Shown here: positions 24,148 to 27,424 of the stretch, one piece after another | Position numbering within the stretch: the stretch's first letter is position 1 | How the letters are laid out: each line of letters opens with the position of its first letter | IMG/VR virus record: IMGVR_UViG_3300010399_000003 | Coordinates: 48,853-112,852 of that record | Length of the DNA: 64,000 nucleotides | Direction: 5' to 3' (one strand) | DNA from: a virus | Notes under the pieces: model-generated | Seen by the model: the letters and a program-made list of their open reading frames with translations, nothing else | What the model was told of the DNA's origin: nothing | The model's database searches: none | Program-made: the position numbers and the translations under genes

Positions 24148-26231
24148 AAATCACCACGAGAATCTTTATTCATCACGCGAAAACGCGTGCCTCGATTCAA
24201 CACGTATTCTTTCTGATATGCATATTGATGAGTAGGTCCCAACACTTCATTTACAGCGACGACTTTCGTCTTAGGACGTGCGCGAATCGTAATGCGTTGA
24301 ACTGCGTGTCCGCGCGCGGGAAGATCATCCAAACTTAGATCTTCCATGATTTGCTTGAGCGCACCGTAGCTCGCTGAAGTAGAAACAAAGCCATGATCTG
24401 TGAAAACATCACCGACTTTCAAATCCAACACGTGATCTGTCACACGATACAGCGTCATTTCCCGAGACAACGGACTCATCAGCGAATCCATGCGTTGAAC
24501 TCGCTCATCCTTCAGAATTCCTTGGTCGTGAGCACGCAATTTATCATTCGGACCGCCATACATAAACGATCCTTCAGTGACATAACTTGATAGAATCTCA
24601 ACAGCATCGGCAAGATCAATCTCGCCGACCGCAGAACTACCTGAACCACCAACCTTTCCCGGCCGTCCGGCGTGACCATGAAAGCCGCTGCCAGCCCCGC
24701 CAAGGGTCTCCAGTCTATCATCCTCATCGAGATCGTCAACAAACACTATCGCATAAGCAATCTGCTCGTCCGACATTTCCAAAGTCTTCGGACGTTTTGG
24801 CATGACTGACTTGCCAGTCGGTGTAACGATATCGATAATCCACTCAGGAGGAATTGTCTCCTCACGATAGAATGCATTGAAAGACGTTTCATCATCCTGC
24901 TTAAAACTGCTTACGTGCGCTTTCGGGATAGCCAATTTCACAATGACTGGCTTCCCCCTTGCATCCGCTGCACGAGTCTTAGCATACATCTCCGCTTCTT
25001 TTAATGACGTCGTTACCCATACATCGCTCCACGACGTCAAACCAGTCTTCAAGATGCTCGCAACATTCTTCGCGACTGTCCCATGAAACGCAGCGGTAGA
25101 TCCGCCACGCTTTCCAGGTCTTCCAGCATGGCCGTGATGTCCAGAACCACGACCACCTAGATGCCGCATCCGCTCTTTGAGTGGCCGACCGCCCCATCCG
25201 ATATCGATCAGGGTATCGTCGGTGGCTCCATTGACTTTGATCTTCTCGTATAAAGCGTGCAGCGAGTCACTCTGTTCAATTGGATCATGTGTCGGCACGA
25301 AAGTCACTTTAACTTTCATGCGCTGACTAGTTCCAGGAGTCTGCCCACCAAAATACTCGGATTCTTCACGCTGGATAAATCCGCGCACCTTAAACTGATC
25401 AAACTCGCGACCAATTACTCCGAGTTTATCAGCGACATCCGCATGCGTTTCTTCATTCAGTGACGGATTATCAGGACTGACTTCTGAACCAAGCAGAATT
25501 CGTTGATCTTTCGGATTAAACAAGAAATGCCGATTGATGATCGATTGGAAATCAAAAAATCCCTTCGGTTCATTTGCCTCTGCTGGCAGCGGATCGAATT
25601 TCTGTAATCCAGTCGAGCCAGATGTATCACTCGTGACGCCGATGCGATTTCCTTGGTCGTCCAACCACGGCGTGCCCGGCTTGACTGGACCCTTCACTGA
25701 ATCGACATAGTCACGAAACAGATCACCGGATGAACCACCGACCTTGCCAGGACGACCTTTGTGACCATGATGACCAGATCCCTTGCCTCCTGCTAAGCGA
25801 AGTGCTAACAGATATCGAGCGACTCGCTCAACATCAAATTCCTTCCGACGTTTCCGTTTCCGTCGCATCGGCTGTAGTAACTCAGACCGAAGCGGCAATG
25901 GACCCGATGCAGCCCGATAGGTCTTCGCAATTTCGTCCGCGGTTTGCGTGCTTGTGTAGTCTAATTCGGTCACCGCATCGCCTGCGGAATGCGTGCAGTA
26001 CAATACGGTCACCGAATCGCCAGTCGTTTCTAAATCAGAATGATGATTCGCGGTGTTTTCTGAGGCTTTCAGGCGAGCGATGAAAGCAGCAAGTTCGCGA
26101 CGATTTCCAAACGTGAAAGTCTTAATCAAGCCTTTCGGTGTGACGACCCAATCAGTCGCTGCTTCTAAACACTTCGCAATCCAGTGTTGACAATCAGGAC
26201 ACGTTTGCGTATCGTGAGCTGGCAGCATCAA
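24126..26231 (-). CDS. Capsid-cargo polyprotein: DCoH-like domain, unknown domain, H-G-T ADP-ribosyltransferase-like domain, R-S-E mono-ADP-ribosyltransferase; three linker motifs
   Basis: NHHSDLETTGDSVTVLYCTHSAGD (DCoH-like). AAFHGTVAKNVASILKTGL (H-G-T). LYRV...FVSTSAS...YQKEYV (R-S-E). Three copies of GGxGSGxHGHxGRPGK(V)GGS. Confidence 0.6.
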   Translation of the reverse strand: MMLPAHDTQTCPDCQHWIAKCLEAATDWVVTPKGLIKTFTFGNRRELAAFIARLKASENTANHHSDLETTGDSVTVLYCTHSAGDAVTELDYTSTQTADEIAKTYRAASGPLPLRSELLQPMRRKRKRRKEFDVERVARYLLALRLAGGKGSGHHGHKGRPGKVGGSSGDLFRDYVDSVKGPVKPGTPWLDDQGNRIGVTSDTSGSTGLQKFDPLPAEANEPKGFFDFQSIINRHFLFNPKDQRILLGSEVSPDNPSLNEETHADVADKLGVIGREFDQFKVRGFIQREESEYFGGQTPGTSQRMKVKVTFVPTHDPIEQSDSLHALYEKIKVNGATDDTLIDIGWGGRPLKERMRHLGGRGSGHHGHAGRPGKRGGSTAAFHGTVAKNVASILKTGLTSWSDVWVTTSLKEAEMYAKTRAADARGKPVIVKLAIPKAHVSSFKQDDETSFNAFYREETIPPEWIIDIVTPTGKSVMPKRPKTLEMSDEQIAYAIVFVDDLDEDDRLETLGGAGSGFHGHAGRPGKVGGSGSSAVGEIDLADAVEILSSYVTEGSFMYGGPNDKLRAHDQGILKDERVQRMDSLMSPLSREMTLYRVTDHVLDLKVGDVFTDHGFVSTSASYGALKQIMEDLSLDDLPARGHAVQRITIRARPKTKVVAVNEVLGPTHQYAYQKEYVLNRGTRFRVMNKDSRGDLWVETIP
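24645..24715 (-). repeat. Linker motif, copy 2 (GGAGSGFHGHAGRPGKVGGS)
   Basis: Checked by direct translation. Confidence 0.8.
25085..25155 (-). repeat. Linker motif, copy 3 (GGRGSGHHGHAGRPGKRGGS)
   Basis: Checked by direct translation. Confidence 0.8.
25731..25790 (-). repeat. Linker motif, copy 4 (GGKGSGHHGHKGRPGKVGGS)
   Basis: aa 148-167 of the 701-aa ORF. Preceded by the basic RRKRKRRK patch. Confidence 0.8.
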
Positions 26232-27424
26232 AACGAGCCCATCGGCTTATCATGCCCGTAATTTTTCGTCGGCGCTTGATGCGTAATCGGCGACTTTGCT
26301 GTCGATGACGGTCCGCCCTTCTGTGCAATACCAAAATCAATGGCCCACTTATTGGCCATATGCAGCACTTCGGTGATCGGCGCGTCGATTTTGATGACAT
26401 TGATCGGAATATCACCGAGCTTGTTGTCCGCTGCGTCGCGCCCGACGACTGCCGCCCATCGATGATGACCATCCACAACGTAATTGTCGCGCGAAACAAA
26501 GATGGGCACCTTCGCAGGATCGTAATTCTTCGCATTCATCATGCCGGCCACTTTCGTGCCGACCATTTCTCGCTGACTAGCTCGCAAGTGTGATGCAAGA
26601 ACCTGTTCAGGGCTCTCAAGGGTTCCCATCGTCTTGATACCTTGATCCTTCAGGTGCTGCATGAACTCAGCCGCGCCGTTCACTTCTCCGTCCTTGTTCT
26701 TCGGAAGTAGATCCGCACGCGAACCGACAGTCGGTTTTCCACTCATCTGCGGCATTGCGATGCGCGAAATGCCTTCCGGGTGCTCCGCTGTGCGCACGGT
26801 CTCCGCACAGAACAGGTTGGTGCCTTTCACGGAAACTTTGCACAGATCAAAATCCTTCGCCTTCTCGCCCTTCGCCTTGGCTTGATTCGCGTAGTCGGCC
26901 AACTTGTTCACAAGTGTGTGCGCTGCGGCCGCGTCGCCCATTTCGACGACTTTCCCATCCAGCACATGCTGCACCGCTTCGTCCATGGTCGCAGGCTTGA
27001 TGGGAATTGGACGGCCGTTCTTGTCAAGTGGTTGCTTCCACTCCACTCCGGTCTTTTCCTTCGGTGCTGCTGGAGCCGCCGCGGATGCTGCACCACCAGA
27101 TGGTGCGCCAGGCACTCCAGCTTTCGGCATCGGAGCAGCACCTTTTGGCGCCGAACCACCGACATGTCCCGGACGGCCACCATGCCCTGAGTGGCCGGAT
27201 CCGGCACCGCCCAATTGGCGCGCCACCCACATCAGGCATTCCGGACATGTCGATGGGTCGTGTTGGTTGGACATCGCGGCAAGCTGCCGCTTGATCCAAT
27301 CTTGACAAGTCGGACACGTTTGGACGTCAATCATCGTTGTCTCCGTCGTCCGCATCTTCACCGAGTTCAGGCATCGCACGCCAGTCGACCTCTTCGTCGT
27401 ACTGCACCGTGTCGAAGAACTCAT
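26228..27424 (-). CDS. Capsid-cargo protein: N-terminal double CxxC motif, one linker, ParB/Srx-like domain
   Basis: TCPTCQDWI...TCPECLMW. GGAGSGHSGHGGRPGHVGGS. VVDGHHRWAAV (ParB-like DGHHR). Confidence 0.5.
   Translation of the reverse strand: MSSSTRCSTTKRSTGVRCLNSVKMRTTETTMIDVQTCPTCQDWIKRQLAAMSNQHDPSTCPECLMWVARQLGGAGSGHSGHGGRPGHVGGSAPKGAAPMPKAGVPGAPSGGAASAAAPAAPKEKTGVEWKQPLDKNGRPIPIKPATMDEAVQHVLDGKVVEMGDAAAAHTLVNKLADYANQAKAKGEKAKDFDLCKVSVKGTNLFCAETVRTAEHPEGISRIAMPQMSGKPTVGSRADLLPKNKDGEVNGAAEFMQHLKDQGIKTMGTLESPEQVLASHLRASQREMVGTKVAGMMNAKNYDPAKVPIFVSRDNYVVDGHHRWAAVVGRDAADNKLGDIPINVIKIDAPITEVLHMANKWAIDFGIAQKGGPSSTAKSPITHQAPTKNYGHDKPMGSF
27165..27225 (-). repeat. Linker motif, copy 5 (GGAGSGHSGHGGRPGHVGGS)
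   Basis: Checked by direct translation. Confidence 0.8.

Follow-up and report, generated by a model that had tools for sequence, protein, structure and literature searches.

The head-assembly block of the virus recorded in IMG/VR as IMGVR_UViG_3300010399_000003 raises the question of what marks a protein encoded there for entry into the capsid. The window analysed here, a stretch of 64,000 nt covering positions 48,853 to 112,852 of that record, encodes a 368-amino-acid (aa) protein, referred to below as the target protein, whose gene stands between those of a portal fusion and a 700-aa multi-domain protein. Phage proteins that are packed into the capsid and injected with the DNA are the first tools against host defences, and most of them are uncharacterised. 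A previous interpretation made from the letters alone, hereafter the sequence-only reading, had taken the target protein for such a cargo, with a ParB/sulfiredoxin (ParB/Srx)-like domain recognised by its DGHHR motif and with an N-terminal CPxC segment, shared with the 700-aa neighbour, that could act as a common capsid-targeting or portal-docking signal. The explanation that we consider probable on balance is that the target is a modular internal or ejected protein of the phage head, that its loading would be guided by a Gly/His-rich junction motif, that its ParB/Srx domain would act early, and that the CPxC segment is specific to this lineage.

The CPxC-W motif and the junction motif

The pattern T-C-P-x-C-x-x-W-[IV]-x-[KR]-x-L, referred to here as the CPxC-W motif, occurs three times: the target protein opens with two copies and the protein after it with one. 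A six-frame scan of the window with the regular expression CP.C..W[IV] returned three copies, all on the minus strand, against a mean count of 0.015 and a maximum of 1 in 200 shuffles of the window, which bears out the claim that the two proteins share an N-terminal TCPxC motif. Copy 1 and the copy in the 700-aa protein are identical at 24 of 29 core nucleotides, which suggests recent common ancestry or gene conversion; copy 2 agrees with the others at no more than 3-5 of 19 third-codon positions and still has T, C, P, C, W, L and the basic residue. Strain variants alter non-motif residues alone (Q5R, which shortly precedes repeat 1, and M21I and Q24P/S, which fall between the two repeats), and the Cys/Pro/Trp core is unchanged.

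Beyond these two proteins, none of the 119 other homologues has the motif, and no CPxC-W leader was present in the best 149 non-self of 257 junction-bearing proteins retrieved at E up to 0.001 by an exhaustive HMMER search of 1.84 billion representatives with leader plus junction as query. The portal fusion, MuF and DUF2213 proteins of the same phage also lack it. A tblastn search of cultured phages with the leader and junction peptide gave no match, possibly owing to low-complexity masking. As judged by these comparisons, the CPxC motif is private to this phage lineage, and for that reason it is probably no general packaging signal.

The setting of the motif also differs between the two proteins. 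The sequence-only reading had placed it, in both, in a segment preceding the first linker. This applies to the target, where repeat 2 directly abuts the junction motif, but not to the 700-aa protein, where the motif merges into a domain resembling pterin-4a-carbinolamine dehydratase (PCD/DCoH) and the first linker comes about 147 aa in. The Pfam family Pterin_4a spans residues 18-100 of the 700-aa protein, the Pfam and NCBIfam PCD models begin at residues 15-18, and the alignment to Geobacillus PCD (PDB 2ebb) begins at AKCLEAATDW; the helix carrying the motif tryptophan is, from these model and alignment starts, the first helix of the PCD-like domain. A PCD/DCoH-like start (Thermus DCoH, E 1e-8) is itself odd in a phage head module. 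A scan of IMG/VR for PCD-type cargo modules gave no relatives, and the only match of the 700-aa protein in cultured phages by tblastn was a weak one to an ADP-ribosyltransferase.

The cysteines of the target are spaced C7-x2-C10-x19-C30-x2-C33, which would allow a four-cysteine site, and the 700-aa protein has a single CPxC plus one further cysteine. The zinc-ribbon reading is unproven: the Pfam models for such ribbons reach 11-12 bits, far short of their cut-offs of 26-34. The AlphaFold2 (AF2) model of the leader, a single-sequence model of low confidence (predicted local distance difference test, pLDDT, 58.8), places helices at residues 11-19 and 31-41, after each CPxC, and contains no strands of three or more residues.

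A second element has a wider distribution. Four head proteins of this phage carry the junction motif LGGxGSGxxGHxGRPGxxGGS (20 aa, Gly/His-rich), in eight copies altogether. The portal fusion and the 700-aa protein hold three each and the target and the DUF2213 protein one each, and every copy lies at a domain boundary, after Leu, Met or Ala. DNA identity among the eight copies is just 48-76%, which argues that they are kept by protein-level selection and not by recent duplication; recombination between the motifs was rejected on the same figures. In 96 of the 120 homologues a recognised flavour of junction immediately precedes the domain, and most of the other 24 show variants by eye. The flavours found elsewhere include FNPxHDxxGRF, EFNxCHxPxxGKFCS, HDQKTHGRR, SEAGRYAAxxRWKGH and GFGRWG, each repeated in three to six neighbouring head-module proteins. 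By sequence comparison, then, the element common to cargo proteins appears to be the junction motif and not the leader. String searches of the literature for junction motifs found no paper naming it; the papers on polyvalent proteins and on MuF toxins do not contain the word 'linker', and the latter contains neither 'motif' nor 'cleavage'.

Leaders of other phages were compared in the same way. In the syntenic relative L085 (4840-12912), six consecutive cargo genes carry a junction within their first 8-45 residues, preceded by six unrelated leaders, one of them only 6 aa long. Five consecutive genes of L086 (9001-14328) carry an EFNxC[HD]xPxxGxF junction (EFNxCHSPxDGKFCSG in four of the five), each behind one of two shared leaders. 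A beta-rich leader of about 50 aa is common to three genes of L004 (5284-10789; E 5e-22 to 3e-6), and in both L025 and L020 four genes open with a few residues that are followed by the junction motif. Clustering of 118 leaders from proteins with GSG-type junctions gave recurrent types of 20, 8, 6 and 4 members, with the CPxC cluster confined to this phage. Some homologues are nearly leaderless, such as P0046 with 4 aa. Short N-terminal modules before the first junction thus appear to be a general feature, sometimes shared by neighbouring genes.

These results bear directly on the proposal that the CPxC-W segment is a capsid-targeting or portal-docking signal of both cargo proteins, removed or retained after loading. 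The model for such a signal is phage T4, whose internal proteins use an N-terminal packaging signal: small N-terminal segments are common to several packaged, ejected proteins and are removed by the prohead protease, a layout to which leader, junction and cargo are analogous (PMC12373910). The proposal draws on the location of the motif at the very N-terminus of two neighbouring products of the head module, on the apparent purifying selection on its residues, on the leaders common to three to five neighbouring cargo genes in L004, L086, L025 and L020, and on the recurrence of leader types across polyproteins. It has to be set, however, against the absence of the motif from all other homologues, from the 149 junction-bearing polyproteins and from the portal fusion, MuF and DUF2213 proteins, against the six different leaders of L085 and the nearly leaderless homologues, and against the 700-aa copy, whose motif helix belongs to the PCD-like domain with no junction in between. 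Unlike the T4 capsid-targeting sequence, to which it has no sequence relation, the CPxC motif is found in just two proteins of one phage lineage, with one copy inside a folded domain. A peptide at the N-terminus of all or most packaged proteins was not found: CPxC is carried by two proteins, as compared with four head proteins for the junction. We regard a targeting role for the CPxC-W segment as unlikely and as the weakest element of the sequence-only reading; the junction motif is a better candidate for a loading or cleavage signal. A more far-reaching scheme would make leader, junction and cargo an undescribed general loading code of modular build, in which a hypervariable junction of about 20 aa marks every capsid-bound module for the head protease or scaffold to recognise, the mini-modules are interchangeable address or assembly tags, and the CPxC pair is a metal-dependent tag tying the two cargo neighbours together or to the portal; we give this scheme little credence.

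Fold and family of the target domain

Behind its junction and a low-complexity spacer the target carries a conserved domain of about 248 aa. Its AF2 model has a pLDDT of 88.4 and a predicted template modelling score of 0.82, and the alpha/beta core of about 90 residues shows the strand and helix order characteristic of ParB/Srx proteins. Comparison figures for members of this superfamily are 5.5 for PadC, 5.4 for KorB, 5.4 for plant sulfiredoxin, 5.2 for free serine kinase (SerK), 5.1 for SbnI, 4.7 for human sulfiredoxin and 4.4 for Atu1540, and each of these matches spans 80-102 residues. A Foldseek search of viral models (BFVD) returned uncultured-phage proteins at E values from 7e-24 to 1e-7, several of them named ParB/Sulfiredoxin and one fused to XkdF. 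The model, the structure matches and the DGHHRWAA motif, which supplies the conserved GxxR for phosphate binding where strand passes into helix, support a ParB/sulfiredoxin fold for the domain, as the sequence-only reading had proposed from DGHHR. In the family alignment A1 (n = 59 sequences), no exchange occurs in D-G-H-H or W-A-A, and the Arg is kept by at least 90%; the simpler pattern DG.HR is present in 116 of 120 homologues. The preceding N-lobe (residues 93-240) is specific to the family, with an invariant Cys pair, an invariant Arg and an invariant Met-Pro in the same alignment.

Profile databases do not recognise this family. No ParB family was found in Pfam at E values up to 10 with either the whole protein or pieces of it, none of the 59 members matched ParBc (PF02195) or its relatives significantly (a single ParBc_2 match had E 0.3), and NCBIfam gave no match to the target domain. 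In PHROGs the domain matched an unnamed family at 3e-15 and the ParB-like phrog_8071 weakly, at E 0.0074. Scoring of 8000 candidates placed 337 clusters in the family, and at least 501 IMG/VR contigs encode a relative; on the bacterial side there are 26 loci in 185,579 species genomes, nearly all of them metagenome-assembled genomes, and relatives in cultured phages are only about 30% identical. As defined by these searches, this is a large, separate ParB/Srx family that is confined to phages and lies outside Pfam and NCBIfam.

The nearest described counterparts are the DdrB-like ParB domains (PF18763; prototype DdrB of phage P1; PMC5512222). Like the target, they have a ParB/Srx fold, occur solo or in multi-domain proteins among the late and head genes of tailed phages, and are predicted to be packed into the capsid and delivered with the DNA, with a proposed role as a nucleoside triphosphate (NTP)-regulated DNase. 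Membership of the target in that family was rejected: none of the 59 members matched PF18763 (P1 DdrB, as control, scored 2.1e-39), and hhalign aligned the family profile with DdrB at a probability of 0.3%. Among the BFVD fold matches, DdrB-like proteins came no better than E 0.05-0.1. Unlike the DdrB-like domains, the target family has its own N-lobe of about 130 aa and the DGHHRW motif. It also differs from the N-terminal CTPase/nuclease domains of ParB proteins (pNOB8 ParB-N, 5k5d; PadC, 6ryk; KorB, 8qa8) and from sulfiredoxin, in that the target has no Pfam ParBc match, helix-turn-helix, dimerisation domain or ParA partner and stands in a context of head assembly, not of partition.

As for its activity, we favour a putative NTP-binding enzyme acting on DNA, with a SerK-like phosphotransferase as the main alternative. 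In the latter case the domain would act on a small molecule or a protein, as SerK and SbnI do, and not as a DNA-acting NTPase or nuclease. The sole sequence-level matches in the PDB, obtained with the family profile, are 1vk1 and the free serine kinase of T. kodakarensis, at 'D.Y.IVDGHHRWAG', and the family's own N-lobe, in which Cys, Arg and Met-Pro do not vary, might provide a pocket for the substrate. These matches, however, cover 13-14 residues at E 0.2-0.6 and are not significant, and the neighbouring cargo domains (topoisomerase IB, 2H phosphoesterase, Tpt1-like) act on nucleic acids. SerK and SbnI, moreover, carry accessory domains different from those of the target and are cellular metabolic enzymes, not phage head-module proteins. 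We assign the phosphotransferase a low probability.

Gene boundaries and the head-assembly block

The maximal open reading frame (ORF) at 26228-27424 encodes 398 aa, and the sequence-only reading had given this as the span of the gene. The span needs correction to 26228-27334, where the real start is most likely M31 of that frame, giving 368 aa. A GGAG lies 6-7 nt upstream of the ATG at 27334 and none lies ahead of the ATG at 27424; the 30 extra upstream codons overlap a better-looking ORF in a different frame that encodes an acidic protein of 45 aa (ORF45); and among four other gene calls for the target cluster, two give 368 aa, one 334 aa (from M35) and one 398 aa. Gene calls on ENA and Logan contigs include the identical product of 368 aa. 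For the downstream ORF of 701 aa, the most likely start is the ATG overlapping the target stop (TGATG), which yields 700 aa. With this overlap and those of ORF45, the portal fusion, ORF45, the target, the 700-aa gene and MuF form a single run of overlapping stops and starts. A frameshift or readthrough linking the target to the 700-aa gene was considered and rejected, the sequence TCG TTT TGA TG containing no slippery heptamer and looking like ordinary stop-start coupling. The end of the target's C-terminal tail (26231-26266) resembles a decayed junction motif. The target and the 700-aa gene may once have been one polyprotein.

The minus-strand head-assembly block runs in the order large terminase, portal fusion, target, 700/701-aa protein, MuF-like protein, 346-aa protein, DUF2213 protein, decoration protein and major capsid protein, and its features are listed below. 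The portal fusion alone carries about 950 aa of cargo, divided by its three junction motifs.

Features of the target gene and of the surrounding head-assembly block. Coordinates are those of the window; all parts of the target lie on the minus strand, and their coordinates were checked by translation.
Feature	Coordinates	Strand	Remarks
Target coding sequence	26228..27334	minus	368 aa + stop, from M31 of the 398-aa maximal ORF
Leader MIDVQTCPTCQDWIKRQLAAMSNQHDPSTCPECLMWVARQL, residues 1-41	27212..27334	minus	two CPxC-W repeats
CPxC-W repeat 1 TCPTCQDWIKRQL	27281..27319	minus	
CPxC-W repeat 2 TCPECLMWVARQL	27212..27250	minus	directly abuts junction motif
Junction motif GGAGSGHSGHGGRPGHVGGS, residues 42-61	27152..27211	minus	
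Low-complexity spacer, Ala/Pro/Gly-rich, residues 62-92	27059..27151	minus	homologues have similar G/S/A-rich spacers after their junctions
Conserved domain, ~248 aa, residues 93-340	26315..27058	minus	N-lobe + ParB/Srx lobe
ParB/Srx-fold core, ~96 aa, roughly residues 241-336	26327..26614	minus	
DGHHRWAA	26450..26473	minus	fits superfamily GxxR phosphate-binding pattern
C-terminal tail ending KNYGHDKPMGSF, residues 341-368	26231..26314	minus	poorly conserved; model pLDDT about 50
Third CPxC-W copy TCPDCQHWIAKCL, residues 9-21 of 700-aa protein	26166..26204	minus	runs into PCD/DCoH-like domain
Junction motif copies	20300-20326, 24666-24692, 25122-25148, 25755-25781, 27152-27211, 28286-28312, 29297-29323, 29822-29848	minus	
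ORF45, 45-aa acidic ORF MADQITDERDELMDEFFDTVQYDEEVDWRAMPELGEDADDGDNDD	27327..27464	minus	overlaps portal stop and target start (ATGA at M31)
Large terminase	34573-36183	minus	
Portal fusion, 1420 aa	27449..31711	minus	portal, weak Tpt1/DarT-like, unknown, 2H phosphoesterase, bacterial-type topoisomerase IB; 3 junction motifs
Multi-domain cargo protein, 700/701 aa	24126-26228 (700 aa; 26231 for 700/701)	minus	PCD-like, unknown, weak Tpt1/PARP-like, ADP-ribosyltransferase-like; 3 junction motifs
MuF-like protein	22663-24147	minus	C-terminal HExxH domain
Head-module protein, 346 aa	21622-22662	minus	unknown
DUF2213 protein, 789 aa	18767-21136	minus	

Several smaller observations concern the same block. 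ORF45 has no significant similarity to other leaders; its ERDELMDEFF resembles by eye the leaders of 'EWDALVDELF' type, which in other phages are fused to the ParB-like domain, but the resemblance is not significant, and ORF45 was rejected as a detached leader of that type. A search within the window matched the N-terminus of the 346-aa protein to that of a 400-aa ORF some 18 kb distant (39998-41200, minus strand), the common segment being LxWYxD...DIYxQELxRxPD...W (E 4e-8). The segment KWHxCWExVKAKGH..SAAAICT follows the DUF2213 domain in the 789-aa protein of the window and precedes it in the L085 homologue (14214-15863), an apparent permutation.

Packaging, delivery and wider meaning

We infer that the target protein is probably packed into the capsid from its position in the head module, the junction motif it shares with other head proteins, the domain fusions of its relatives, and the presence of a relative in a virion protein, evidence on which the sequence-only description of the protein as cargo is a reasonable one. 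Relatives are fused, on either side, to XkdF-type protease domains (PF14550) or to DUF2213, and others lie inside polyproteins with up to seven junction motifs (L006; also P0010). H66_0060 of Pseudomonas phage H66 (L088, KC262634.1 47645-59008), a protein of 3787 aa annotated as verified in virions by mass spectrometry, holds a 30%-identical relative matching query residues 49-239. Such giant internal virion proteins of F116-like Pseudomonas phages contain the same domain as the target, but embedded in one giant protein; neither GSG-type junctions nor a CPxC leader were looked into or noticed in them. Phage H66 offers a cultured system for testing the domain.

The protein might instead stay in the cell, as a late ParB-like DNA-binding or nicking helper of genome packaging or replication, and owe its place among the head genes to co-expression alone. 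It is common for ParB-family proteins to work on DNA in the cytoplasm, and in L086 the gene follows closely on others that encode Toprim and sigma-factor domains; yet the next four genes there (bar a 65-aa ORF) have the same architecture of leader and junction. In the window, the gene stands between the portal fusion and the cargo and MuF genes with overlapping stops and starts, and its junction motif is that of the portal, cargo and DUF2213 proteins, while relatives are fused to prohead-protease-like domains, embedded in polyproteins, or part of the H66 virion protein. We hold an unpackaged role to be very unlikely.

On the explanation favoured here, the target would enter the procapsid in the company of the portal fusion and of the MuF, DUF2213 and 700-aa cargo proteins, and the junction motif, not the CPxC leader, would be recognised for loading, for cleavage by a head protease, or for both. 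Two candidate proteases are the HExxH domain of MuF and the DUF2213 domain. Once ejected together with the DNA, the ParB/Srx domain might serve as an early NTP-binding enzyme on DNA, either a nickase or an NTP-gated DNA binder. The CPxC repeats look like a lineage-specific duplicated mini-module, akin to the helix cap at the N-terminus of the PCD-like domain next door, and might bind metal through their four cysteines or pair chains, without being a general address tag. The MuF-like protein ends in a HEIGH (zincin-like) domain with sub-threshold Pfam matches only, a candidate processing protease for the junction motifs that is missing in the MuF of L085.

Some points weigh against this explanation. 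Packaging, cleavage and ejection are all steps that we infer. No protease was identified, DUF2213 having neither a relative in the PDB nor an hhalign match to XkdF, the profiles being thin. The closest sequence-motif match of the domain is to small-molecule kinases (SerK) and not to nucleases. The CPxC core appears to be under purifying selection and hence presumably does something, and the leaders shared elsewhere by three to five neighbouring cargo genes leave room for a targeting role.

Polyvalent proteins with ParB domains are known from head modules, with the Dar proteins of P1 as capsid-packaged precedent (PMC5512222), and the polyvalent protein gp47 has been found in phi24B virions. Such proteins are multi-domain, or solo beside multi-domain ones, and are linked to portal or MuF genes; the target has one effector domain, and its neighbours are a five-domain portal fusion and a four-domain cargo protein. 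We would place the target among the capsid-delivered effectors of phages, a class already known.

The analysis defines a large, phage-confined ParB/Srx family, absent from Pfam and NCBIfam and almost always found behind a junction motif. It also separates the private CPxC leader from the element that cargo proteins really share, and shows leader, junction and cargo to be a recurring architecture. If the junction is indeed a signal for loading or cleavage, it would allow the injected effectors of metagenomic phages to be predicted by a sequence rule, and would also serve as a handle for putting foreign proteins into capsids.

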